The translations under genes were made by a program, and so were the position numbers. Positions 22,278 through 55,338 of a stretch of 64,000 bases of DNA are shown here, piece after piece. Source of the stretch: Escherichia phage ukendt. Position 1 is the first letter of the stretch. Each line of letters opens with the position of its first letter. The notes under the pieces are model-generated. The model searched no databases and was not told the origin of the DNA. It was given only the letters and a program-made list of their open reading frames with translations. The DNA is taken from sequence record NC_052661.1. One strand, given 5' to 3'.

Positions 22278-22454
22278 ATGTCTGAATTCTTCACAATGGC
22301 TTTCTTAGGGATCTATCTGATTATTAGTGCTGTTGGCTTAATCATGTCTCTAATAGAGGAAATGGGAATTAAGTGGAATTGTGCATTCGGTATAGCTCTT
22401 ATGCTCACTCCAGTTTGGATTTACATTTGCAAATCGGTTGAACTAATTGGTTAA
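22278..22454 (+). CDS. small membrane protein
   Basis: Start refined to ATG at 22278; two hydrophobic segments. Confidence 0.45.
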   Translation: MSEFFTMAFLGIYLIISAVGLIMSLIEEMGIKWNCAFGIALMLTPVWIYICKSVELIG

Positions 22455-23241: not shown

Positions 23242-23406
23242 ATGATTTTAAACTTCATCATCAACTTGTGTTTGACATTGGGACTACTTTGTGCAATAGT
23301 ATCCCCTTTGGTTGGTGAATATTGTTCTGAATTGGCGATGTTTATAGTTCTTGGTGCGGCTATTGCTAATATGTTTGTCGCTGCGATTTGTATGTTGTGG
23401 GAATAG
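23242..23406 (+). CDS. small hydrophobic membrane peptide
   Basis: 54 aa ORF not in track; RBS AAGGAGAG. Confidence 0.35.
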   Translation: MILNFIINLCLTLGLLCAIVSPLVGEYCSELAMFIVLGAAIANMFVAAICMLWE

Positions 23407-27345: not shown

Positions 27346-27496
27346 TCCTATACAAACCCTTGTCTTTTTCAGTTTGCATCACTAGGATTCGATCTGAGTG
27401 GGTTCCTGAAGGTCTGCCAATAAGATTAAAGGTTATCTCAAATTCCCACTACCTATTATCTCAAAAATCCCTCAAATTATTTAAACTTTTTAAGAA

Positions 27497-27536
27497 TTTA
27501 CAAAAGTGAAAGTTGAAAACCAAAATTTAAAGTTTA
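27497..27536. repeat. direct repeat, copy 1 (TTTAAAGTTTA-containing unit)
   Basis: TTTACAAAAGTGAAAGTTGAAAACCAAAATTTAAAGTTTAG, imperfectly repeated at 27636. Confidence 0.5.
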
Positions 27537-27635
27537 GGAAAATTATCTTAAAATGTTAGATACAAAACAAAACTCAAAAGTCAAGGAAAATTTTAAAAAT
27601 TTTGCGCGCCCACAGTATTTAAAGTTTTTTTGCTT

Positions 27636-27675
27636 TTACAAAAATGAAAGTACAAAAGCAAAATTTAAAGTTTAC
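27636..27675. repeat. direct repeat, copy 2
   Basis: TTTACAAAAATGAAAGTACAAAAGCAAAATTTAAAGTTTAC. Confidence 0.5.
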
Positions 27676-27722
27676 AAAAATTTTTATGCAGGTGAAAATG
27701 AGAAGAGTTCTCATATGGAAAT

Positions 27723-27761: not shown

Positions 27762-27803
27762 TTGATTCTTATTTAATAAGGTAAATGATAATCATTCTCA
27801 TTT
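27762..27803 (+). promoter_or_regulatory. promoter with Fur-box-like operator across the -10 (site B)
   Basis: TTGATT, 18 nt, TGATAAT; palindrome AAATGATAATCATTCTCATTT matches the Fur consensus GATAATGATAATCATTATC at 16 of 19 positions. Confidence 0.5.
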
Positions 27804-29413: not shown

Positions 29414-29971
29414 ATGGGCCGCGAATATGTGATCCAGTCTTGGGTAAAACATGAAGCAGATGATCCGCGCATCATTCCTGATTATCTTGTCGATGAATCC
29501 ACGGGCTATAGCGGGGAGCAAATAGGTAACAGATTAGCACGTAGTAACGGCAACGTAAAAGCGCGTTATGTGCGCCCTGGTTGGCTGGCAAATGGTAACG
29601 CTGATTTATCCAGTGCGGAAGATGCGAGCGACGGCGCGAAAGATAATCCCTTGTACAAAGTTGATCCGGCTTTTCGTGTCCTGGATGAATACCCCAACAA
29701 GATAGCGGCGCTTGATGAAGCACTAGAAAGTAAGCGCATCACCTGGACCGCTTACAACATGGCAAAAAACGTACTTGATGGTAAACTGATTCAAGCGGAG
29801 AGAAAATTAGCCAAAATTGCAGCCATAGCCCAGGAGGAAGACGAGGAGACAACGGAAGAGGAAGAGTACGAAGAGATCCCGCCGTTGTTGTGTGTTGATG
29901 CTTTTCCTGATTATCAGCCGACAGAGGAAGAAAAAAGGATCGCCCTAGAAAACTTTGAAAATAGTCTTTGA
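29414..29971 (+). CDS. cassette protein with highly acidic C-terminus
   Basis: 186 aa; EEDEETTEEEEYEE tail; co-transcribed with preceding gene. Confidence 0.5.
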   Translation: MGREYVIQSWVKHEADDPRIIPDYLVDESTGYSGEQIGNRLARSNGNVKARYVRPGWLANGNADLSSAEDASDGAKDNPLYKVDPAFRVLDEYPNKIAALDEALESKRITWTAYNMAKNVLDGKLIQAERKLAKIAAIAQEEDEETTEEEEYEEIPPLLCVDAFPDYQPTEEEKRIALENFENSL

Positions 29972-30026
29972 CATATCGCCGCCACTAGCATAATATTTAC
30001 CACGTAGGGCGGCAATGGTGCCGCTC
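29968..30026 (+). promoter_or_regulatory. cassette promoter + 5' hairpin module
   Basis: TTGACA, 17 nt, TAATAT, then GCGGCAATGGTGCCGC hairpin. Confidence 0.55.
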
Positions 30027-30053
30027 ATAGTGAAATTATACAAGAGGCTTACA

Positions 30054-30149
30054 ATGATTAATAAAGAAAATAGCTTGACGGTTGGAACGATTAACGGTAT
30101 CATTCTAGCCGTTCCATTTTGGATTGTAGTAGCGGTTATTATTTTCTAA
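30054..30149 (+). CDS. cassette hydrophobic peptide
   Basis: 31 aa; own promoter-hairpin module. Confidence 0.35.
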   Translation: MINKENSLTVGTINGIILAVPFWIVVAVIIF

Positions 30150-30157
30150 AAATATTC

Positions 30158-30218
30158 TTGACAACGTTTTTTAATCTGATAAGATGTATCACATAGGGCG
30201 GCGGAATACTTCCCCGCC
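30158..30218 (+). promoter_or_regulatory. cassette promoter + 5' hairpin module
   Basis: TTGACA, 16 nt, TAAGAT, then GGGCGGCGGAATACTTCCCCGCC hairpin. Confidence 0.55.
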
Positions 30219-30239
30219 AAAACAAAAAAGGGTAACACA

Positions 30240-30602
30240 ATGAGCAAGCAAATCAATACTATCATGTTTAATCTGGTATCTTTCCGCGATGATATGAAAA
30301 ATTTACCACGTGAAACGGTTGATATTCATGTTTCAGCTTATCGCGCCCTTATTGACATGTTACCGCTAAAACGTGATCAACATGCCGCTAATATGATGCT
30401 TAATGCTATGCTTAAAAAGATGATTCAAACGGATCTTACTCTGGCATATGAGTATCAAGGGCGCTTATATGCAACTTACAACAAGGCGGTACCTGGTCTG
30501 GGAAGTACCGAAGAGTTGCACGGCTTAAACCTGGATCAAAACACTTGGGATAGTATGCGCCGCGTTATGGTATGGGCCGAAAGCGGTAAAATTTACGAAT
30601 AA
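30240..30602 (+). CDS. cassette small protein
   Basis: 120 aa; promoter-hairpin module. Confidence 0.5.
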   Translation: MSKQINTIMFNLVSFRDDMKNLPRETVDIHVSAYRALIDMLPLKRDQHAANMMLNAMLKKMIQTDLTLAYEYQGRLYATYNKAVPGLGSTEELHGLNLDQNTWDSMRRVMVWAESGKIYE

Positions 30603-30608
30603 AAACGG

Positions 30609-30668
30609 TTGACACTGTTTAAACTTCTGGTATAGTTTACCACATAGGGCGGGAAGTGGTTTCCCGCC
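30609..30668 (+). promoter_or_regulatory. cassette promoter + 5' hairpin module
   Basis: TTGACA, about 17 nt, TATAGT, then GGCGGGAAGTGGTTTCCCGCC hairpin. Confidence 0.55.
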
Positions 30669-30690
30669 AACAATTAAAAAGGTTATCATC

Positions 30691-31056
30691 ATGGCTATTA
30701 ATATTAATGTTTCCTCTTATGCTACCCTGGCTGACACGGCTAAAATTGAATTATCCAGCATTGAGGCGGTGCATATTAGCGCCCGTCGCTGGTTTCAACA
30801 GTCCTACGGTAACACATATTTTTCTTTAATGGTTGACGTTGAGATCGGCGGTAAACTGATCGAGGTGGTTAACGTTCCGTTTCAATATGGTTATGGTGAT
30901 CATTTTGATACCGTCGCCCTGGAAGAATTTAGCAAGGTCGTTAATATGGAAGGTAAAGAGTTTTCACGCGGCGCGTATCTTTCCCGTTTTTGCCGTGACA
31001 ATGGGATCACTGTATACAGTCATGCAAGCGATGTTAAACGTAAAAAAGATCTATAA
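30691..31056 (+). CDS. cassette small protein
   Basis: 121 aa; promoter-hairpin module. Confidence 0.5.
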   Translation: MAININVSSYATLADTAKIELSSIEAVHISARRWFQQSYGNTYFSLMVDVEIGGKLIEVVNVPFQYGYGDHFDTVALEEFSKVVNMEGKEFSRGAYLSRFCRDNGITVYSHASDVKRKKDL

Positions 31057-31063
31057 AAAGCAT

Positions 31064-31121
31064 TGACAGCACGAATAAAAAGAGTAAACTGTATTACATA
31101 GAGAGCGGGAACACTTCCCGC
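31064..31121 (+). promoter_or_regulatory. cassette promoter + 5' hairpin module
   Basis: TTGACA, 16 nt, TAAACT, then GCGGGAACACTTCCCGC hairpin. Confidence 0.55.
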
Positions 31122-31145
31122 CTCACTGAAAAAGAGAGAAAAATC

Positions 31146-31385
31146 ATGGCTAAATCTAAAATGTACAACGGTCACAAAAACAAAACTCATTGGAATGTAA
31201 GCCTTTGGATTAATAACGATGAATCATTGTATCGGTTTGCATTGGGATTGATCAATGAGTGCGGTAATAAAGATCAGGCGGCTGATTTAATGTGCTACCG
31301 TTTGAAACAGGATGGAATCACTACAACGCCAGACGGCTTTAAGTATAGTAAAACTGCAATCCGCGCCGCTATGGTTGGAATGTAA
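31146..31385 (+). CDS. cassette small protein
   Basis: 79 aa; promoter-hairpin module. Confidence 0.5.
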   Translation: MAKSKMYNGHKNKTHWNVSLWINNDESLYRFALGLINECGNKDQAADLMCYRLKQDGITTTPDGFKYSKTAIRAAMVGM

Positions 31386-31394
31386 TAAAAACAG

Positions 31395-31454
31395 TTGACA
31401 ACGTTTAAAATTAGTGTAAGATGTATCACATAGGGCGGGAAGTGGTTTCCCGCC
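31395..31454 (+). promoter_or_regulatory. cassette promoter + 5' hairpin module
   Basis: TTGACA, 16 nt, TAAGAT, then GGCGGGAAGTGGTTTCCCGCC hairpin. Confidence 0.55.
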
Positions 31455-31476
31455 AACAACAGAGAGATTAAAGATT

Positions 31477-31704
31477 ATGGCTATCAATATTGTTCGTGTA
31501 TCCGGCACCGTTGGCAGTTCCCAGGTTGTAGCAGTTATCACAGAGAAGAAAGGGGATGATCTTCACTCTTCCTTGAATAGCTGGGCGGTCGCTAACTTCG
31601 GGCAATGGTCGAGCGTTGAGTACATCGAATCCTACCAGGTGCCGACGATTAGCCTAACCGATCTCAACGTTGATCGCTTGTTGTGCCTGGATGAATTAAT
31701 CTGA
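31477..31704 (+). CDS. cassette small protein
   Basis: 75 aa; promoter-hairpin module. Confidence 0.5.
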   Translation: MAINIVRVSGTVGSSQVVAVITEKKGDDLHSSLNSWAVANFGQWSSVEYIESYQVPTISLTDLNVDRLLCLDELI

Positions 31705-31714
31705 AAAAAGATTG

Positions 31715-31772
31715 TTGACACCGGAAAGAAAAAGAGTAGAATATATTACATAGGGCGGCAATGGTGCCGCTC
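31715..31772 (+). promoter_or_regulatory. cassette promoter + 5' hairpin module
   Basis: TTGACA, 16 nt, TAGAAT, then GCGGCAATGGTGCCGC hairpin. Confidence 0.55.
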
Positions 31773-31795
31773 ACAACAGAAGAGAGATTATCACG

Positions 31796-32011
31796 ATGGC
31801 TAATATCCGCACTTTACTGAAAAATGCAAGTCAAGTTTTATTTTCAGATGACGAGTATTTCAATAAAGACATTACAGGCGTGAAAAATTTAAAAGACGTG
31901 AAGGATGTTATCGGTATTCGTGGATCTTTACGTAAAGGTGATTACTATGGTAACAAGGTGCAATATAAACTGTCAAAGGATTACAATTTTACTTTGACAA
32001 TTATTTCATAA
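31796..32011 (+). CDS. cassette small protein
   Basis: 71 aa; promoter-hairpin module. Confidence 0.5.
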   Translation: MANIRTLLKNASQVLFSDDEYFNKDITGVKNLKDVKDVIGIRGSLRKGDYYGNKVQYKLSKDYNFTLTIIS

Positions 32012-32017
32012 AACCGC

Positions 32018-32077
32018 TTGCAATACTGCAAAAATAAAGTAAACTATATTCATCAAGGCGGGGAATGGTCCGCCGCC
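32018..32077 (+). promoter_or_regulatory. cassette promoter + 5' hairpin module
   Basis: TTGCAA, 16 nt, TAAACT, then GGCGGGGAATGGTCCGCCGCC hairpin. Confidence 0.5.
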
Positions 32078-32101
32078 TAACAAAGAGAAGAGGAAAACAT
32101 C

Positions 32102-32275
32102 ATGATCACTTTCGCTACCCGTGAAGCCGCTCGCAACGTTGCACGTAAAGTTAACGCCGCCAACCTGGGCGCTACACTTAAAGCCCCGGTGAAAGATGAA
32201 TCAGGCAAATGGATCTTCCCTGGTCTGCGTCATGCTGACAAGTTAGGTACTTTAAGCCTTAAAAATAATCGTTGA
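32102..32275 (+). CDS. cassette small protein
   Basis: 57 aa ORF not in track; promoter-hairpin module. Confidence 0.4.
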   Translation: MITFATREAARNVARKVNAANLGATLKAPVKDESGKWIFPGLRHADKLGTLSLKNNR

Positions 32276-32309
32276 CTTTTCGTTATAGCGCCTTACAATG
32301 GGCGCTATA
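32272..32309 (+). promoter_or_regulatory. variant cassette promoter with palindrome across the -10
   Basis: TTGACT, 16 nt, TACAAT, embedded in TATAGCGCC...GGCGCTATA inverted repeat. Confidence 0.45.
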
Positions 32310-32342
32310 GAGAAGAGAAACCACTATTAACAAGGAAACATC

Positions 32343-32564
32343 ATGATTACTTTTGCTATTGTCGCCGTTGTTGCTGGTCAGGTTTACGTAAATGATACAT
32401 TCACCACAGAAGACAAGGCAGCAGGAGACATCACCGCCGCTTATAATGAGTGCAAGGCAGTAGAAAGGATGTTAGCGCCTTGTATGCTAATGAGTGAACG
32501 CCAGGACGGAATAACAGTATTTACTAACATTGAAACAGGGTACCAAATGGTAGTAACAAAATAA
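32343..32564 (+). CDS. cassette small protein
   Basis: 73 aa; variant promoter with palindrome. Confidence 0.5.
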   Translation: MITFAIVAVVAGQVYVNDTFTTEDKAAGDITAAYNECKAVERMLAPCMLMSERQDGITVFTNIETGYQMVVTK

Positions 32565-32567
32565 AGC

Positions 32568-32624
32568 TTGACACCGATTTAATTTTTAGTAAACTGTTAC
32601 ACGTAGGGCGGGAATAGTTCCCGC
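32568..32624 (+). promoter_or_regulatory. cassette promoter + 5' hairpin module
   Basis: TTGACA, 16 nt, TAAACT, then GCGGGAATAGTTCCCGC hairpin. Confidence 0.55.
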
Positions 32625-32643
32625 TCAAAAAGAGAGAAAGACC

Positions 32644-32997
32644 ATGAAAGCACAAAATGCAATTAAAGAGTACATCCTTGCCGCTATCGATTTTAATGAT
32701 TACGGTATTACAACCGAAAAAGAGAAGATCGCGGAATTGATGCGCCGTTTTAATTCCGAGTACTGGTACCCTGATAACCAATCACGTTTTAATTATAGTA
32801 TTGTTAAAGCACTTGCATCATGGTTACAAGGCTTGCCATCAGATATCAATATCGCTTTCGAATATTGGGAAATTGATCGCCTGTTAACATCCTGGGGATA
32901 CATTAAAGAGAATAGCAGCGATGATAAAATCCAACGAGAAAGGGAAAATTATTGGCTTTATATTGCAGGCGTGATCCTTGCTTGCTCTTATGAATGA
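32644..32997 (+). CDS. cassette small protein
   Basis: 117 aa; promoter-hairpin module. Confidence 0.5.
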   Translation: MKAQNAIKEYILAAIDFNDYGITTEKEKIAELMRRFNSEYWYPDNQSRFNYSIVKALASWLQGLPSDINIAFEYWEIDRLLTSWGYIKENSSDDKIQRERENYWLYIAGVILACSYE

Positions 32998-33003
32998 TAA
33001 ACC

Positions 33004-33058
33004 TTGACAATTTTACAAAACAGTTTAAATTAACAATATAGCGGCAATGGTGCCGCTC
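33004..33058 (+). promoter_or_regulatory. cassette promoter + 5' hairpin module
   Basis: TTGACA, A/T-rich -10 region, then GCGGCAATGGTGCCGC hairpin. Confidence 0.5.
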
Positions 33059-33076
33059 ATATGAAGAGGAAACAAA

Positions 33077-33223
33077 ATGAATACATCTAATCGCGCAGAA
33101 AAAATTCAATCTTCCAAGATCCGCAAGGCCTGGAACGAGGAAGTGATCCGCAAAGGCGACAAGCGCAATAAAACAAAGCGCGGGAAGAGTGACAAATATA
33201 ATTGGATGGATTTAGAGGATTAA
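33077..33223 (+). CDS. cassette small basic protein
   Basis: 48 aa Lys/Arg-rich; promoter-hairpin module; followed by terminator. Confidence 0.4.
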   Translation: MNTSNRAEKIQSSKIRKAWNEEVIRKGDKRNKTKRGKSDKYNWMDLED

Positions 33224-33230
33224 CATAACA

Positions 33231-33257
33231 AGGGCGCATCAAGCGCCCTTTCTTTTT
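33231..33257 (+). terminator. rho-independent terminator inside the cassette array
   Basis: AGGGCGC-ATCAA-GCGCCCT followed by TTCTTTTT. Confidence 0.6.
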
Positions 33258-33278
33258 ACATGTAGAGGATAAACAAAA

Positions 33279-33464
33279 ATGATTTTAAACGAGCTTAAAA
33301 CAGCCTACAACGCAACATTAAAAATAGCCGTGCGTTACCGTGATGCGTACGGTTTTATCGCGCAGGGCGTGATCCTGGGCTTTTCTGACGATGGTTTGAT
33401 CTATGTTGATGCACATCACAACAAGGTTAAACCGGAAAACGTTATCAATATAAAATATCTTTAA
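33279..33464 (+). CDS. cassette small protein
   Basis: 61 aa; RBS GAGGA. Confidence 0.45.
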   Translation: MILNELKTAYNATLKIAVRYRDAYGFIAQGVILGFSDDGLIYVDAHHNKVKPENVINIKYL

Positions 33465-33470
33465 AAGTGG

Positions 33471-33527
33471 TTGACACCATAACCGGACCTGTTAAACTGT
33501 ATTACATCAGGCGGGGAATAGTTCCCC
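33471..33527 (+). promoter_or_regulatory. cassette promoter + 5' hairpin module
   Basis: TTGACA, 16 nt, TAAACT, then GGGGAATAGTTCCCC hairpin. Confidence 0.55.
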
Positions 33528-33550
33528 CACCATACAAAAAGGTAAATATT

Positions 33551-33757
33551 ATGATCACCGCAAAACAAGAAAAAATCATTATCGACGTTGCAGCCGTTGC
33601 CGCTATTGCTATTATTGGATCTTATTATGATACCCGTTTCCCGTCGGCTATGCATGAGATCGCCGCCGTTGCATCAGTCGGCGTGCTGTTTTACGTTGGT
33701 AAACGCTATTTATCACCAATGATTAACAAGCTGACACCGTGGAAAAATAAAGGTTGA
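33551..33757 (+). CDS. cassette small membrane protein
   Basis: 68 aa; promoter-hairpin module; start refined to 33551. Confidence 0.5.
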   Translation: MITAKQEKIIIDVAAVAAIAIIGSYYDTRFPSAMHEIAAVASVGVLFYVGKRYLSPMINKLTPWKNKG

Positions 33758-33810
33758 TCCTGTTTTATATTGTGTTATAGTTATCGTGTAGGGCGGCAAT
33801 GGTGCCGCGC
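33754..33810 (+). promoter_or_regulatory. cassette promoter + 5' hairpin module
   Basis: TTGATC, 16 nt, TATAGT, then GCGGCAATGGTGCCGC hairpin. Confidence 0.5.
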
Positions 33811-33829
33811 CCCCTTTGAGGATGAAATC

Positions 33830-34114
33830 ATGAGTAAAGCTAACACCGTGCTAATGTTTTCCCTGATTAATGATCCCGCTTACTTGTCCAACATGACGCA
33901 GGAGGGTAACACATTAACGGCAACATTCACCAATAAGCTTGACCGAGTGATCATCATCTCACTGAAAACAGTTAGTAAAGGCTTTTACTCGTTAGCTTAT
34001 CATTGGATCACCGATACCGATGAGACAAGCCAGGACTATAGCGCCCCTTTCCCTGAATCAATGGCACGGGAGATCATCGCCGCCGTTGTAAATGATGGTT
34101 TGTTTACTGCATAA
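33830..34114 (+). CDS. cassette small protein
   Basis: 94 aa; shares 25-nt initiation region with gene at 24955. Confidence 0.5.
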   Translation: MSKANTVLMFSLINDPAYLSNMTQEGNTLTATFTNKLDRVIIISLKTVSKGFYSLAYHWITDTDETSQDYSAPFPESMAREIIAAVVNDGLFTA

Positions 34115-34131
34115 ATAATTTAGAAAAAGGC

Positions 34132-34188
34132 TTGCAATCATTTTGAGATAGTGTATATTTAATTCATAGGGCGGCGGGAATAGTTCCC
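34132..34188 (+). promoter_or_regulatory. cassette promoter + 5' hairpin module
   Basis: TTGCAA, 16 nt, TATATT, then GGGAATAGTTCCC hairpin. Confidence 0.5.
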
Positions 34189-34211
34189 AAAGCAAACGAG
34201 AGGATTACACG

Positions 34212-34330
34212 ATGAGCAAGTACACAGTAGAATACACGGTAGAAAATCCGGCAGTATCCGAAGGTAAAAAGATGACATTTGCCATCAGTATAATCGCTTT
34301 CGTTGTCACTATCTTATCAATCATCTTATA
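34212..34330 (+). CDS. cassette hydrophobic peptide
   Basis: 39 aa with C-terminal TM segment; promoter-hairpin module. Confidence 0.35.
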
Positions 34331-34341
34331 AGGTGCACACC

Positions 34342-34503
34342 ATGAAAACAACAGATATTATCAAAGAGATCGCCCTTGCCGCTGGCGTTGAGATCGAGGA
34401 AGTGATCGCGCTCAATCTTACAGAAAACGATCTGCGCAACTATGAAGCGGAAAGCGTGAAAGCAAGCGGTGCGATCCTGGCATATAATCCGGCTAACAAG
34501 TAA
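34342..34503 (+). CDS. cassette small protein
   Basis: 53 aa ORF. Confidence 0.35.
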   Translation: MKTTDIIKEIALAAGVEIEEVIALNLTENDLRNYEAESVKASGAILAYNPANK

Positions 34504-34512
34504 GGGGATAAC

Positions 34513-34623
34513 ATGAATCCGAAAGATATGCAAGCATGGAAAGGGTACGACGATCTGAGCGCCTTGCGTAATAAGTCCAGCCGTAACCTTAGACGATTGC
34601 AAGCAAAGAAAAAGAAAAAATAG
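34513..34623 (+). CDS. cassette small basic protein
   Basis: 36 aa ending KKKKK. Confidence 0.3.
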   Translation: MNPKDMQAWKGYDDLSALRNKSSRNLRRLQAKKKKK

Positions 34624-34624
34624 T

Positions 34625-34682
34625 TTGACAAGTCCGCTTAATCTGATAATATGTATCTTGTAGGGCGGCAATGGTGCCGCTC
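34625..34682 (+). promoter_or_regulatory. cassette promoter + 5' hairpin module
   Basis: TTGACA, 16 nt, TAATAT, then GCGGCAATGGTGCCGC hairpin. Confidence 0.55.
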
Positions 34683-34701
34683 ACAAGAAGAGAGAAAAAT
34701 C

Positions 34702-34986
34702 ATGAAAATCACAAAAAGCCTAACTAATTATGCAGCACGTCGCGGATTATGTTTAACCGTTGAAAACTTAGGGAAAGAAGACTTTTTGTGTTTTTGGGAG
34801 CTTGAAAACGATTGCGAGTGGATGTTTTCCTATTCTATCTGCGAAGATCAAAACGGTTGTTTGTTAACCTGGCGCGGTAATATTTATTTACCGGAAGAAA
34901 TTAAAGAGGAATTACCAGGTACGATCATGACAGAGAGACAGCTTAAGGAAATGATTAATTTTGTAGGGCAAAACATTAAAAAATAA
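34702..34986 (+). CDS. cassette small protein
   Basis: 94 aa; promoter-hairpin module. Confidence 0.5.
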   Translation: MKITKSLTNYAARRGLCLTVENLGKEDFLCFWELENDCEWMFSYSICEDQNGCLLTWRGNIYLPEEIKEELPGTIMTERQLKEMINFVGQNIKK

Positions 34987-34987
34987 T

Positions 34988-35050
34988 TTGACAGCACGCA
35001 AACAACGTAGTAAAGTTTACCACATAGGGCGGCGGAATGGTCCACCGCTC
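34988..35050 (+). promoter_or_regulatory. cassette promoter + 5' hairpin module
   Basis: TTGACA, 17 nt, TAAAGT, then GGGCGGCGGAATGGTCCACCGC hairpin. Confidence 0.55.
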
Positions 35051-35071
35051 ACAACAGAAGAGAAACAAATC

Positions 35072-35242
35072 ATGATCCCGACTATGTTTTATGTATCGCG
35101 CAAAGGTCACAATATTTTTTGGTCTGAAGATTTAAATGAAGCCATGACGTTTGCCCGTGATCGTGTTGCTATCGGTGGCGTTAACATCACCGTAACCGAT
35201 GAAAATGGCATTGAATACTATAACGGCGACGATGAAGAGTAA
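35072..35242 (+). CDS. cassette small protein
   Basis: 56 aa; promoter-hairpin module. Confidence 0.45.
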   Translation: MIPTMFYVSRKGHNIFWSEDLNEAMTFARDRVAIGGVNITVTDENGIEYYNGDDEE

Positions 35243-35249
35243 TTAATGA

Positions 35250-35267
35250 GGCGGGGAGTACCCCGCC
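35250..35267 (+). promoter_or_regulatory. cassette-type GC hairpin without recognisable -35/-10
   Basis: GGCGGGGAGTACCCCGCC, 20 nt upstream of the ATG at 35287. Confidence 0.4.
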
Positions 35268-35286
35268 GTCAATAAAGAGGTAAATC

Positions 35287-35556
35287 ATGAAAATATCATT
35301 GGACGTTGCAATCAAGGCCATCGAATCCGGTTACATCCTGGTAAAAGATGATAAGGCTAAAATAGTGCATCATGTTAACAAGGAAACAGGCGAGAGCATG
35401 ATCACATATAAAGCCGCCTACTTTCTCCAATCAGTAGCAGATCCGCGCGTACAACGCCAGGTTACAGCGGCTATTGCTAAAAAATTATGTGCTTTACAGG
35501 GTGCAAGTTTTAACGAGATTGCCCCGTGTTTTGAGTGGTCAAGCTTGAAAAAATAA
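35287..35556 (+). CDS. cassette small protein
   Basis: 89 aa; preceded by GC hairpin only. Confidence 0.5.
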   Translation: MKISLDVAIKAIESGYILVKDDKAKIVHHVNKETGESMITYKAAYFLQSVADPRVQRQVTAAIAKKLCALQGASFNEIAPCFEWSSLKK

Positions 35557-35557
35557 T

Positions 35558-35619
35558 TTGACAACAATTATAAATCGGGTAGAATGTATTTCGTAGGGCG
35601 GGGCAATAAGGCAACGCCC
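35558..35619 (+). promoter_or_regulatory. cassette promoter + 5' hairpin module
   Basis: TTGACA, 16 nt, TAGAAT, then GGGCG...CGCCC hairpin. Confidence 0.5.
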
Positions 35620-35634
35620 ATTAATGAGGGTAGA

Positions 35635-35742
35635 ATGATGTTAGAGAAAATTTTCACGGTTGTAATAGTGGGCCTGGCGTTATCGGTTGGAGTGGTTGCA
35701 ACTATGGCTAACATGATCCTATCTTCCCACGGTATCGGCTAA
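35635..35742 (+). CDS. cassette hydrophobic peptide
   Basis: 35 aa single TM; promoter-hairpin module. Confidence 0.35.
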   Translation: MMLEKIFTVVIVGLALSVGVVATMANMILSSHGIG

Positions 35743-35752
35743 GGTGAAACAA

Positions 35753-35968
35753 ATGATCACGAATAAGACAGGTAAAACGGAATTTTTACGCGGCTTGCAA
35801 GTTGGTAAACCTGAGATCTGGCATTGTACTAAATCCGCGCATAATGAAATGAAAGATTTTACCGCTACTTTACAACGTGTTAAAATATCTATCACACAGA
35901 AAAAAGCCTTGTTAGTAGTAGAAAACGAGATCCCGCAAACTATTATTATTGTCGAGCGTACAGCATGA
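35753..35968 (+). CDS. cassette small protein
   Basis: Start refined to ATG 35753. Confidence 0.45.
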   Translation: MITNKTGKTEFLRGLQVGKPEIWHCTKSAHNEMKDFTATLQRVKISITQKKALLVVENEIPQTIIIVERTA

Positions 35969-36351
35969 AAACAGAAATCATTATTGAAATCATCAACGGT
36001 TATAAAGAAGCCTTTATTTTTGCTGAATCAGCAAGGGATCATGAAGGTAATTTTATTGAAAACTTAGACGATTATGATTTTTCTCCTAGCGCGGACGAAC
36101 GGATCGCCCAGGATGTAACAGCCTTTATTAATGCTAATCTTGCCGCTATCTCTGAGGCAATGAGCGACGGCGCAACAGCCAACCAGATCGGGAATGATTT
36201 ACATTTTACCCGTAACGGTCACGGCGTAGGCTTTTGGGATCGCCCTGAAATATACACCACTAACACGGCGAACCGCCTAACCAATGCAGCTAAGTTTATG
36301 CCGAACGTGTCGGCTTACATTGGTGAAGATAATTTGATTTATATTGAATAA
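35965..36351 (+). CDS. cassette small protein
   Basis: 128 aa; translationally coupled. Confidence 0.5.
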   Translation: MKTEIIIEIINGYKEAFIFAESARDHEGNFIENLDDYDFSPSADERIAQDVTAFINANLAAISEAMSDGATANQIGNDLHFTRNGHGVGFWDRPEIYTTNTANRLTNAAKFMPNVSAYIGEDNLIYIE

Positions 36352-36357
36352 AAAGTA

Positions 36358-36415
36358 TTGACACAGATCGCCAGTGTGCTAATATTTACCACGTAGGGCG
36401 GCAATGGTGCCGCCG
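36358..36415 (+). promoter_or_regulatory. cassette promoter + 5' hairpin module
   Basis: TTGACA, 16 nt, TAATAT, then GGCGGCAATGGTGCCGCC hairpin. Confidence 0.55.
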
Positions 36416-36432
36416 ATAATGAGGAAAGTAAA

Positions 36433-36732
36433 ATGGAAACTATCGCTATTGTTACCGTAGAAAAACTGGTTGTTGGTGATGTATTCGCGTTAATGGTGCC
36501 TAACAGCAGCAAGCTGGGCGCTTATGAAGTAATGGATCATAAAAATGAATCATTTGGCGACGGTTGCACAATGGCGGTAAAATCTTTAAAGGATGGAATT
36601 ATCCGCCAGGCTAACTGGCACAAAGGGAATCAAGTCGGTTTAATATCAGCTAATTTCTTGCCAGAAGAGCAAACGTTAGACCAACTATCAGGCGGTAAGA
36701 CGTTAGCCGAACTACTGGAAACAGCGATCTAA
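36433..36732 (+). CDS. cassette small protein
   Basis: 99 aa; promoter-hairpin module. Confidence 0.5.
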   Translation: METIAIVTVEKLVVGDVFALMVPNSSKLGAYEVMDHKNESFGDGCTMAVKSLKDGIIRQANWHKGNQVGLISANFLPEEQTLDQLSGGKTLAELLETAI

Positions 36733-36739
36733 TCGACAA

Positions 36740-36755
36740 GGGGCGGCAACGCCCC
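36740..36755 (+). promoter_or_regulatory. cassette-type GC hairpin without recognisable promoter
   Basis: GGGGCGGCAACGCCCC between stop at 36732 and ATG at 36786. Confidence 0.35.
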
Positions 36756-36785
36756 CATTAAACGCAATAGGAAGAGGATAGACAC

Positions 36786-37076
36786 ATGAAAAAGATGATC
36801 GCAGTAGTTGCCCTGGTTGTTGGTATTAACGCGCCTGTAATGGCGAAAGAGTTGCCAGAATCCATCACGTTAACCGATATCAACGCAATAAACCGGATCG
36901 GCGTTAATTATCGCCTATGCCTTGCCGCTAAAACTTTCCAGGACGGCACAACAGAGTACTACGGATTCGAGGGTACCCGCTGCGGTGAGCTTGCACGCGA
37001 CCTTAAGGAAGATCCAGACCTTGAGGCCATACCGATGACCGTAAACGGTAAAGCTTACGTAAACCGCCAACAATGA
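36786..37076 (+). CDS. cassette secreted protein
   Basis: 96 aa; signal peptide MKKMIAVVALVVGINAPVMA. Confidence 0.5.
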   Translation: MKKMIAVVALVVGINAPVMAKELPESITLTDINAINRIGVNYRLCLAAKTFQDGTTEYYGFEGTRCGELARDLKEDPDLEAIPMTVNGKAYVNRQQ

Positions 37077-37207
37077 GAAAGGTAATCATCACAATGGGGA
37101 TCGTAGTAGCAACGCTGGCGCTTATCCCCTTCATGGTTGAACATGTGCTGATCAGTGTTGTCCTTGTAGTCAGTGACCTATTGGAAACGGTTGGCACCTG
37201 GTTTTAA
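37073..37207 (+). CDS. cassette hydrophobic peptide
   Basis: 44 aa ORF overlapping upstream stop (ATGA). Confidence 0.35.
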   Translation: MRKVIITMGIVVATLALIPFMVEHVLISVVLVVSDLLETVGTWF

Positions 37208-37381
37208 GATAATAAATAGGGCTTGCAATAGTCCTATTTTTTGTTATACTTATTGAACGGGCGGCACCTGGGAGCAGGGGAAGATAATCACCGGAAGACC
37301 CCGCTATATATTGATAACTAACGCCTATCAAACAACAAAACATCAAAGGAACAAACTATCAAATCTTTACAATTCTACCTA

Positions 37382-37855: not shown

Positions 37856-37882
37856 AGGGCGCACAAAGCGCCCTTTCTTTTT
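37856..37882 (+). terminator. rho-independent terminator at the right end of the cassette array
   Basis: AGGGCGC-ACAAA-GCGCCCT followed by TTCTTTTT; near-identical to the terminator at 33231. Confidence 0.6.
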
Positions 37883-38019
37883 GCCCGAACAATGTTGATA
37901 GCTTTCGCCTATGAAAAACCGACACAGAACAAAACTGAATAAATCACGGTATCAAGCTAATCGACCATTAAACGAATAACCATACATCCCAGGGCAACAG
38001 GCTGTTAGAGAGCTATTTA

Positions 38020-38360
38020 GAGCGGTTAAAATCGATCAACAACCAACAACAAACCATCAAAAACACCCTTTTACCTCCTTTCTAGTGCAATGATAACCAT
38101 TATCATCTACCCATGATTATCTATGCAATATAAGCGCATAATTATAATGTTGATAATAGTTCGCAACAACTAACCAACAAACAACATAAAACAATAAGCA
38201 AACTAATCATAATCAAAGGAATAATAGCAAGATGATTGATAACGACAAACAATCAAACCATGATGAATACTAAGCAAAACAACGATAACACGACAAAACA
38301 ACCAACTAACGAACAATAACAAACGAAACCATTAAAATAACAACTATTAGCAAAATAGTG
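38020..38360. repeat. A+C-rich low-complexity tract with AAC/CAA repeats
   Basis: Long runs such as CAACAACCAACAACAAACCATCAAAAACACCC with almost no G on the plus strand and no ORF. Confidence 0.55.
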
Positions 38361-38489
38361 CCTAAATGAAATCATTACAAAACGAATCATTCACAGGATC
38401 ATCATTAGCACGCTATGCCGGACACATAGCGAGCTAATAATAAGCCAACTACACCCCAACAATCATAACCATCGGTGACGGTTATTTCT

Positions 38490-38520
38490 TGTTACTGCGT
38501 AGCTTGCAATAATTGCAAGC
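38490..38520. repeat. perfect palindrome CTTGCAATAATTGCAAG
   Basis: 17-bp inverted repeat within the non-coding region. Confidence 0.45.
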
Positions 38521-38843
38521 GTAATGACGCTTACACTTATTGCGCTGGCTTATTATTAGCATTATATGTAATTACCAAGATCATAACATTAGCGCAATAA
38601 CAATAATCATTGTGGTAATTACAAGATGAAATCATTAGCAAGATGAATAATTGCACGTAGCAACATGAGCGAATAGCGACAGGTTGCATAGTGTGCACAT
38701 AGTGTATAAACATACAAGAAAATAAAGGCTAATCTTTTGGGGGCGAATACTATCGCGTAGCGATATGTTGAGCACCTTCTCTTAAACGTAAATAAAATCA
38801 GAAAATTCTTGATTTATTTTAGTTTTTATGTTAATAAACGTTT

Positions 38844-38864
38844 AAATAATAATCATTCTCATAT
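38844..38864. promoter_or_regulatory. Fur-box-like operator (site C)
   Basis: AAATAATAATCATTCTCATAT shares the core AATCATTCTCAT with sites B and D. Confidence 0.4.
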
Positions 38865-39002
38865 AAATAATAGTCTGCTTGTCATGAGCGGGATTAGTTG
38901 ACAATGTTCCGTCATATGATGAAGTTGCCAAACCATTGATAAATAAGTGTTTGTGTGATTTATAATCAAGTGGCCCACCTTGTCGCTATGTTGGCATGAG
39001 CC

Positions 39003-39044
39003 TTGCATAAGTCATTGAATACGAATGATAATTATTCTCATTCG
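39003..39044 (+). promoter_or_regulatory. promoter with Fur-box-like operator across the -10 (site D)
   Basis: TTGCAT, 17 nt, TGATAAT; palindrome CGAATGATAATTATTCTCATTCG. Confidence 0.5.
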
Positions 39045-39374
39045 CATGATATTTGGGAATTGTCGCTGCGTGGACCTGACGGCCCGAAAATTCGCGTTAA
39101 GCACTTCTTACGTATGCGCCATGATTTTTGCCATATGATATTGATTCTATTAGATATTCTTGCCATGAAACAAGGTGTGTCGAAATAATCTCTCCCCGTA
39201 GATATTTTGGGTTACTTTTTATACAAGAGTGGGGTGTCAAAAATAATCGGTATATATGGGATAATTGATAGGAATCCCCTATGGTAATTCGATTGTAATT
39301 CCTTAAGATTGATCGTATGATGTTGGTGATTGATGATTGCCATGAAAGATGGCTAACGATGAGAGGAGATTGTC

Positions 39375-43625: not shown

Positions 43626-43940
43626 ATGTCAGAAGAACTTAAAGAATTTTATCAGGCATATCATAACTGGCTGTTAGCTGGTGCTCCAGATAATAATCCT
43701 TTCTGGCACGATAAAGGGTTATGTAGTTGCCTCTACCTTTGGACTGGTGGTTACGATGATCTAAATTATGAAATGCAAATGCAATTTCGAGAAGCAGGGT
43801 TGTCTGAAGAATACCCGTTTGATGACGGGGACAGGTTTAAATATGATTTTGCACAAAGAAACGGGCTGCTACATTTGAATGCTGCCCGTATAAAATGGGT
43901 AAAAGATCATGCTACACAGGAGGATGTGCAATGCCTATAG
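43626..43940 (+). CDS. family A paralog (WVKDR motif)
   Basis: 104 aa; WLLAGAPDNNPF...GLCSCL...RIKWVKDH. Confidence 0.55.
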   Translation: MSEELKEFYQAYHNWLLAGAPDNNPFWHDKGLCSCLYLWTGGYDDLNYEMQMQFREAGLSEEYPFDDGDRFKYDFAQRNGLLHLNAARIKWVKDHATQEDVQCL

Positions 43941-55236: not shown

Positions 55237-55338
55237 ATGGTTTCATTTATCGTAGGTGTAGTTGTAGGCTATCTTATTAACAAATATCAAGACGTTATCA
55301 CGGCAAAAGTAAAAGACATTTTAGACTCATCTAAATAA
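55237..55338 (+). CDS. small hydrophobic peptide
   Basis: 33 aa ORF not in track; RBS AAGGAGA. Confidence 0.3.
   Translation: MVSFIVGVVVGYLINKYQDVITAKVKDILDSSK

Follow-up and report, generated by a model that had tools for sequence, protein, structure and literature searches.

Conservation and purifying selection of four genes for predicted very small membrane proteins in a cassette array of a Phapecoctavirus-like Escherichia phage

Introduction

The proteins KdpF (29 amino acids, aa), AcrZ (49 aa) and MgrB (47 aa), each with a single transmembrane (TM) helix, dock on larger membrane complexes, and the type I toxins TisB, Hok and IbsC, of less than 60 aa, are made of one TM helix with short tails (PMC12648545). 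On the phage side, Gp11 of Staphylococcus phage PhiNM1, the small membrane protein of an early gene, binds MurG and DivIC (PMC11237401), and T4-type phages carry promoter-early stem-loop (PeSL) cassettes, in which promoters and stem-loops flank small orphan genes (PMC2839356, PMC4122927). In the present work, we analysed four very small hydrophobic open reading frames (ORFs), called here tm31, tm39, tm34 and tm44, located in an array of gene cassettes of Escherichia phage ukendt (sequence record NC_052661.1), of which a stretch of 64,000 nucleotides, referred to below as the window, was studied.

Very small phage membrane proteins are often missed or unevenly annotated, and few of them have a known role. 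In phage T4, the superinfection-exclusion proteins Imm and Sp are early, small proteins of roughly 80-100 aa, located in the inner membrane or facing the periplasm. That a large virulent phage has small hydrophobic early proteins is expected rather than surprising: small membrane proteins of phage early regions are a well-known class, and the present ORFs are already catalogued in databases as hypothetical or membrane proteins. What is new here is the purifying selection on all four ORFs, the start of tm34 at 35638, the conserved motifs and the gene pairings found across two phage subfamilies.

Results

Coding status of the four ORFs

All six ORFs listed in an initial annotation of the window are present: in the array, those at 30054 (31 aa), 34212 (39 aa), 35635 (35 aa) and 37073 (44 aa), and outside it, those at 23242 (54 aa) and 55237 (33 aa). 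Five of the six have a hydropathy of 2.45-2.69, measured as the maximum mean of a 19-residue Kyte-Doolittle window. The four array ORFs all reach 2.48-2.69 over a stretch of about 19 or more residues, sufficient to span the membrane, with a value of 2.48 for the 35-aa version of the ORF at 35635. Such ORFs might be spurious, that is, hydrophobic frames resulting from T-rich codons in intergenic DNA. Among 436 ATG-initiated ORFs of 28-60 aa in the six frames, 21 (about 5%) had by chance a hydropathy of at least 2.4, and the annotations of several relatives leave out one or more of the ORFs. However, high hydropathy together with a Shine-Dalgarno (SD) motif was limited to five distinct ORFs, namely four of the initial annotation (30054, 34212, 35635 and 23242) and one at 22278; the SD motifs of tm31, tm39 and tm34 lie 5-7 nt upstream of the start.

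Conservation was followed in 17 related loci fetched from GenBank phage records, of which 14 span the array and come from Phapecoctavirus and Justusliebigvirus phages (including phi92), with a few unclassified or differently filed, the remaining three being short loci of Vequintavirus (rV5-like) phages. With the exception of codon 35635, the ORFs were intact with a conserved ATG in 9-15 relatives (tblastn), and they remained so across two phage subfamilies at 50-60% identity. The ratio of non-synonymous to synonymous substitution rates (dN/dS, pooled pairwise Nei-Gojobori) was 0.22-0.42 in frame for tm31, tm39, tm34 and tm44, compared to 0.5-2.8 in shifted frames. The variable sites at codon positions 1/2/3 numbered 93/56/131 when pooled (chi-square p=3e-7), and the codon periodicity taken singly gave p=0.016 for tm31, 0.17 for tm39, 0.056 for tm34, 0.005 for tm44 and 0.036 for the ORF at 23242. 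Selection, periodicity and synonymous changes which preserve the peptide motifs all point to coding sequences. Taken together, these comparative tests exclude a non-coding origin of the four ORFs; the conservation data contradict the spurious-ORF explanation, which we consider extremely improbable and have rejected. As judged from these sequence comparisons, all four ORFs of the array are genuine genes, which code for predicted very small membrane proteins and are under purifying selection, and their status as coding genes is further backed by an SD motif or by translational coupling.

The profiles of the PHROG families matched by tm39, tm34, tm44 and the ORF at 23242 have lengths of 39, 34, 44 and 54 aa, identical to the ORF lengths, and the matches were full-length, with E-values of 1.7e-22 to 1e-38. 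Neither Pfam nor NCBIfam returned a match above noise for the peptides or their partners, and the PHROGs are families without known function. The annotation of relatives was found to be uneven. Phages Mt1B1_P17, TSP7_1, tuntematon and Bas51 annotate the peptides as hypothetical or membrane protein (for example tuntematon gp029, Mt1B1_P17 gp004 and gp016, and Bas51_0125); KKP 3954 omits tm34 and tm44, and Ro121c4YLVW omits tm39.

Table 1 Positions, in window coordinates, of the four genes, their partners and expression signals, and the two hydrophobic ORFs outside the array
Feature	Position	Strand	Properties
Sigma-70-type promoter of the tm31 cassette	29968..29996	+	TTGACA-17-TAATAT, A-rich stretch upstream
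Leader hairpin of the tm31 cassette, GGGCGGCA-AUGG-UGCCGCUC	30007..30026	+	Predicted fold, minimum free energy (MFE) -14.4 kcal/mol; SD and AUG unpaired
tm31, 31 aa	30054..30149	+	SD AAGAGG; maximum 19-residue hydropathy 2.65; dN/dS 0.22
Weaker promoter-like site	34132..34159	+	TTGCAA-16-TATATT, 9/12 match; followed by a degenerate, truncated leader hairpin
tm39, 39 aa	34212..34331	+	SD GAGAGGA; maximum 19-residue hydropathy 2.69; dN/dS 0.42
tm39 partner, 53 aa, soluble, phrog_35944	34342..34503	+	PHROG match; conserved adjacency
Promoter of the tm34 unit	35558..35585	+	TTGACA-16-TAGAAT, 11/12
5'-proximal leader hairpin of the tm34 unit	35596..35619	+	Predicted fold, MFE -14.9 kcal/mol, z -3.1
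tm34, 34 aa	35638..35742	+	SD GAGGG; phrog_14631; dN/dS 0.23
tm34 partner, 71 aa, phrog_5988	35753..35968	+	10 nt after tm34
Third gene of the tm34 unit, 128 aa, phrog_1915	35965..36351	+	ATGA overlap
96-aa protein, N-terminal signal peptide, phrog_9845	36786..37076	+	Directly upstream of tm44
tm44, 44 aa	37073..37207	+	phrog_16005; dN/dS 0.31; maximum 19-residue hydropathy 2.59
Intrinsic-terminator-like hairpin with T-run	37214..37239	+	Closes the transcription unit after tm44
54-aa protein, two TM helices, phrog_27459	23242..23406	+	Maximum hydropathy 2.45; dN/dS 0.35
33-aa protein, phrog_11666	55237..55338	+	Maximum hydropathy 1.19; PHROG match E=1e-12

Conserved motifs and partner genes

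The alignment of each peptide with its relatives showed that the conserved residues are mostly outside the hydrophobic core and that the sequence of the helix drifts. In tm31, a polar and conserved N-terminus, MI[NK]K.NSLTVGTINAI, is followed by a variable C-terminal TM helix, and the C-terminal end differs among relatives (31-35 aa), some variants having a basic tail. This gene is the only ORF of its cassette, the next -35 hexamer starting at 30158, and it stands alone, without a fixed partner gene. It is present in 112 phage records (tblastn); tm31 has no PHROG family, and many records nonetheless annotate it as a hypothetical protein. An ATG in the loop of the leader hairpin (GGCAATGGTGCC) is in frame with tm31 and opens an alternative ORF of 44 aa (30015-30149), and the WPEC1 record annotates a longer ORF of 47 aa from an upstream start. 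As there is no SD and the start falls within the stem-loop, a mis-called start is probable.

The tm39 peptide has a polar N-terminus of 20 residues, in which V.Y...NPA..EG[KR]K is retained down to 39-42% identity, and a C-terminal TM helix which drifts. Its length is exactly 39 codons even in the Justusliebigvirus versions, at the same 39-42% identity. It matches phrog_10979 (called 'membrane protein', in the moron/host-takeover category; E=5.9e-23, 1-39/39) and was found in about 62 phage records at at least 60% identity (tblastn), more divergent copies existing too. The gene for the 53-aa protein lies 10-30 nt 3' of tm39 in 11/11 Phapecoctavirus-type loci, a pairing that is not kept in Justusliebigvirus.

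The ORF of 35 aa proposed at 35635 is real, and only its start has to be moved: codon 35635 is ATC in 11/11 relatives and the phrog_14631 profile has 34 positions, and the true start of tm34 is therefore 35638, which gives a peptide of 34 aa. The match to this profile covers the whole peptide (E=1.7e-22, 1-34/34). A drifting N-terminal TM helix is followed by a C-terminus, ATMANMILSS[HN]GIG, nearly invariant across two subfamilies; over the last 14 codons, the window and Vequintavirus sequences differ by four synonymous changes and one replacement. Homologs of tm34 were detected in 226 phage records (tblastn), about 71 of them from Vequintavirus at 50-59% identity. The gene heads a three-gene unit behind the 35558 promoter, and it is followed at 10 nt by the gene for the 71-aa protein in 14/15 loci, including three Vequintavirus genomes.

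The tm44 peptide begins with MRK and continues with a moderately conserved TM helix, a charged pair, an invariant VLVVSDLL and a near-invariant ETVGT[WL]F, the general C-terminal consensus being VLVVSDLL..[VI]G..F, with the ETVGT[WL]F form in most relatives. The VLVVSDLL motif is preserved through six synonymous changes in the codon alignment. Two hydrophobic segments were delimited, residues 4-22 and an extra 12-residue segment at 25-36. The description of the four array peptides as essentially single TM helices has to be corrected for the ORF at 37073, which is not one clean helix. The match to phrog_16005 is full-length (E=5.5e-30, 1-44/44). Homologs of tm44 occur in 66 phage records (tblastn) and form 28 clusters in a database of 5.8 billion proteins, all the named ones coming from E. 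coli or Klebsiella phages.

The order of the tm44 transcription unit is the promoter at 36358, then genes 36433, 36786 and 37073, tm44 being the last. Neither a promoter nor an SD was found for tm44, whose start overlaps the preceding stop codon as ATGA, and upstream of 36786 there is only a hairpin, right after the previous stop codon. This arrangement indicates that tm44 is translationally coupled to gene 36786, which codes for the 96-aa protein. A gene for a 94-96-aa protein with a signal peptide, followed by tm44 with an overlap or at 3-6 nt, was found in 11/12 loci, including two Vequintavirus genomes. The 71-, 53- and 96-aa partners have no Pfam match, and the predicted fold of the 96-aa protein, from one usable fold model, gave no informative match. 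The partner families are narrow (41 and 14 clusters), with all named members from phages, of the rV5, phAPEC8, CR9 and Salmonella types plus one record labelled Acinetobacter phage. A spanin pair was considered for the 96-aa protein and tm44 and rejected, the signal peptide ending in ...APVMA|KE with no lipobox cysteine.

The location predicted for this pair bears on superinfection exclusion, in which peptides facing the periplasm would keep later phages from penetrating the cell wall or bringing in their DNA, as Imm and Sp of T4 do. The pair of tm44 and the secreted 96-aa protein is most plausibly the candidate for such a role: the C-terminal segment of tm44 would be periplasmic if its N-terminus is cytoplasmic, and its coupled partner has a signal peptide. 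Early-type promoters, the predicted inner-membrane location and the accessory nature of the cassettes, variable among relatives as exclusion genes often are, also speak for it. On the other side, no similarity to known exclusion proteins was seen (Pfam, NCBIfam, no named PHROG match), and the fold model of the 96-aa protein matches nothing informative. We regard exclusion, which would be a special case of the general proposal discussed below, as rather unlikely.

The positions of the genes also bear on whether the ORFs might be translated leaders only, that is, upstream ORFs which couple or regulate the downstream gene, with an incidental peptide. Like such leaders, tm39 and tm34 open multi-gene units, and the next start codon comes only 10-13 nt after them. 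However, the tm31 cassette has no downstream gene (the stop ends at 30149, and the next -35 follows at 30158) and tm44 is the last gene ahead of a terminator, and because of these positions a pure leader role is excluded for both. For tm39 and tm34 it is unlikely because selection acts on the peptide sequence, synonymous changes preserving the motifs; in addition, Justusliebigvirus lacks the 53-aa partner and still has tm39 with unchanged length and N-terminal motif. As an explanation for the set, translated leaders appear very improbable.

Common leader of the array and expression of the peptide genes

Repeat finding and a pattern scan revealed about 19 plus-strand cassettes with a common leader between 28438 and 37460. 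The 19 aligned leaders showed, from 5' to 3', an A-rich stretch, TTGACA, a spacer of 16-17 nt, TAnnnT, a hairpin, a purine-rich SD and ATG. The -35 hexamer is near-perfect across the 19 leaders, and 59 promoter-like sites were observed compared to 28.5 expected in shuffled sequence. The hairpin, with the consensus (T)ATCAC(A/G)TAGGGCGGC-AATGG-TGCCGC(T)C, is located 3' of the -10 hexamer. Its stem variants preserve the pairing, as judged by eye on the aligned leaders (for example GGCGGC/GCCGC versus GGCGGGAA/TTCCCGCC). In the predicted RNA folds, a GC-rich hairpin forms near the 5' end and leaves the SD and the AUG unpaired. The GenBank record of phAPEC8 labels these elements "putative promoter determined with PHIRE" and "host dependent promoter determined with MEME".

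Promoters with the sigma-70 consensus are used ahead of phage-directed changes of the polymerase, and their presence in the array leads us to infer early expression. The peptide genes are probably expressed early in infection, mostly from strong host-type sigma-70 promoters. The initial annotation had gone further in giving each peptide its own promoter. This proved right for 30054 and 35638; the site ahead of 34212 is weak (9/12) and 37073 has none. The same leader precedes gene units of every kind in the array, not the peptide genes alone. Because every array cassette carries this leader whatever it encodes, and none stands at 37073, the view that dedicated promoters mark the peptides as effectors fails.

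The expression signals bear as well on the possibility that the peptides are non-specific membrane-active toxins, similar to type I toxins or holins, which would oligomerise, depolarise or permeabilise the inner membrane and aid host shut-off. Their size and layout (less than 60 aa, one TM helix, short extensions) are those of the type I toxins reviewed in PMC12648545, and the strong promoters and open ribosome-binding sites would suit such a role, as would a weak match of the ORF at 55237 to a holin-family profile (E=0.09). However, such a mechanism is harder to reconcile with a fixed motif next to a drifting helix and with the lack of any visible control of the antitoxin type; a pore or carpet mechanism would predict conservation in the helix rather than outside it. 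No SD sequestration is predicted, the SD and AUG being unpaired in the leader folds, and the promoter-like matches on the minus strand near the ORFs are weak (9/12), as by chance, so that no antisense promoter stands out. The genes are also not adjacent to lysis genes and have promoters of the early and not the late type, and phage replication would presumably suffer if the membrane potential collapsed as infection begins. We therefore consider this mechanism unlikely. The more specific reading of a holin or lysis protein was rejected, the neighbours being small hypothetical early-region genes behind sigma-70 promoters.

Some other elements were observed in and around the array. Terminator-like hairpins (AAGGGCGC..GCGCCCTT with a T-run) lie at 33230-33250 inside the array, where the hairpin reads as a terminator on both strands, and at 37856-37874 just beyond it. 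The cassette gene for a 71-aa protein at 31796-32011 is called 'phosphoribosylpyrophosphate synthetase' in tuntematon, alia and other records; at about 70 aa, the protein is implausibly short for this label, and the name seems to have been propagated from phage Av-05. A 19-bp palindrome, AATGAkAATsATTCTCATT, occurs in six copies (27726, 27755, 27784, 38089, 38845 and 39024; 0.28 expected), three of them in 29-nt phasing and all confined to the non-coding AT-rich stretches which flank the array on both sides. The copy at 27781-27799 has at most three mismatches from the E. coli Fur-box consensus, and the palindromes may be operator sites or elements of an origin or terminus. A direct repeat of 72 nt (82% identity, 138 nt apart; 27473-27544 and 27611-27682) is located in the non-coding DNA upstream of the array.

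Other small hydrophobic proteins and the genomic setting

The peptides outside the array which had been called similar both exist as ORFs and are less alike than supposed: the ORF at 23242 has two TM helices, and that at 55237 does not clearly have one, since only about 14 residues at its N-terminus are hydrophobic and the tail after them is charged. Both sit within tightly packed operons and have an SD (AAGGAG). The ORF at 55237 was found in 125 phage records (tblastn), including phi92 gp032. Further genes for small membrane proteins were noticed at 22278-22454 (58 aa, two TM helices, phrog_22639) and at 33551-33757 (68 aa, two TM helices, phrog_30003, with a cassette promoter at 33471). The plus-strand early block also contains ORFs at 43931 (66 aa, N-terminal anchor) and 52536 (69 aa, several hydrophobic segments).

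By its sequence matches, the window phage is a Phapecoctavirus-like coliphage of the Stephanstirmvirinae, not a T4-like phage. Across the whole region of 29.9-37.4 kb, the identity to Escherichia phage KKP 3954 is 95.5%; 263 phage records match the region, many other Phapecoctavirus records at 93-97% identity. A scan of IMG/VR with a neighbouring 94-aa gene returned a single locus, and the relatives were thus drawn from GenBank. Records of Campylobacter phage B15 and Acinetobacter phage ABPW7 have about 94-96% DNA identity to the region, and Pseudomonas phage PsgM04F has a tm39 counterpart at 79% protein identity; contamination or a wrong assignment may lie behind these host labels. In phi92, the homologous array is at the right end of the genome, directly before the direct terminal repeat, and the physical end of the genome therefore probably falls within the window. 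The DNA 3' of the array, at 37900-39370, is AT-rich (GC 0.34) and has no long ORFs. Scans of the whole window with Rfam models and for tRNA genes gave no matches.

Discussion

We favour, with slightly better than even confidence, the proposal that the four peptides are small inner-membrane proteins in which a TM anchor carries a conserved motif that binds a specific partner. A membrane anchor with a specific binding motif is suggested because the motif is conserved, the helix drifts and the gene pairs are fixed; conserved motifs outside the TM segment, together with three fixed partners, are more in keeping with specific effectors than with hydrophobic ORFs of random origin. The proposal also agrees with the way in which KdpF, AcrZ and MgrB (PMC12648545) and PhiNM1 Gp11 (PMC11237401) act, namely by binding other proteins. 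Hairpins at the 5' end can protect mRNA against 5'-end-dependent decay. In the sequence of events which we propose, the host RNA polymerase would transcribe the peptide genes early in infection, the 5' leader hairpin would stabilise the mRNA, and the peptides would insert with the N-terminus in the cytoplasm, following the positive-inside rule. The TM helix would then act as a generic anchor that keeps the conserved motif at the surface of the membrane for binding to a specific partner, which might be the phage protein encoded with it, a protein of the host inner membrane, or both. With this topology, tm31 and tm39 would expose their motifs to the cytoplasm, and tm34 and tm44 would have theirs at the outer leaflet or in the periplasm, which for tm44 is the side of its secreted partner. 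The purpose could be to alter envelope function, as an accessory trait of host takeover or exclusion.

Several points weigh against this proposal. The topology comes from a hydropathy scale and the positive-inside rule, and some tm31 variants have a basic C-terminal tail. Simple linkage can be enough to keep neighbours in a phage array together, even if their products do not interact physically. Taken singly, the codon periodicity of tm39 falls short of significance (p=0.17) and that of tm34 is at the border (p=0.056), and the pairwise dN/dS values rest on 9-13 related short sequences which are not independent. Our literature searches turned up no transcriptomic, Ribo-seq, proteomic or functional study of Stephanstirmvirinae early genes.

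The pairs tm34 with phrog_5988 and phrog_9845 with tm44 are both conserved across two subfamilies, Stephanstirmvirinae and Vequintavirinae. That they form undescribed two-component early modules, in which the tiny anchor positions its soluble or periplasmic partner at the inner membrane, is a speculative extension to which we give little credence; if true, such modules would block membrane-based host defence or exclude competing phages. The defined motifs and the partner genes provide concrete targets for mutagenesis and interaction screens. Since this group of phages is used in therapy and biocontrol against pathogenic E. coli, accessory early genes that may act on the envelope are of practical interest.

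Compared with KdpF, AcrZ and MgrB, the phage peptides are alike in having less than 50 aa, one TM helix and short extensions; those three proteins differ in being host-encoded, and no homology to the phage peptides was found with Pfam or NCBIfam. The type I toxins share the size below 60 aa, the single TM helix and the short tails; the present peptides differ from them in having no visible control by antisense RNA or SD sequestration and in being conserved outside the helix. PhiNM1 Gp11 is likewise a small membrane protein of an early phage gene, but it belongs to another phage with a Gram-positive host, and no relationship in sequence would be expected. T4 Imm and Sp, also from a large virulent coliphage, have a location comparable to that predicted for the secreted 96-aa protein and tm44; they are larger, and family searches gave no similarity to the peptides.

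For the array as a whole, the closest likeness is to the PeSL cassettes of T4-type phages, with which it shares repeated strong sigma-70 promoters, an A-rich upstream element, a GC-rich stem-loop, small orphan genes between these elements and a variable region. The T4-type stem-loop is located upstream of the AT-rich region and the -35 hexamer and is read as a terminator for upstream transcription (PMC2839356), whereas that of the array follows the -10 hexamer, lies within the predicted 5' untranslated region and mostly has no T-run. Close relatives among T4-type phages differ in which PeSL cassettes they have and where these are placed. The content and order of the array cassettes differ among the relatives of the present phage: tm31 is in the first cassette in Justusliebigvirus and in the fourth here, and extra genes are found in tuntematon and KKP 3954.

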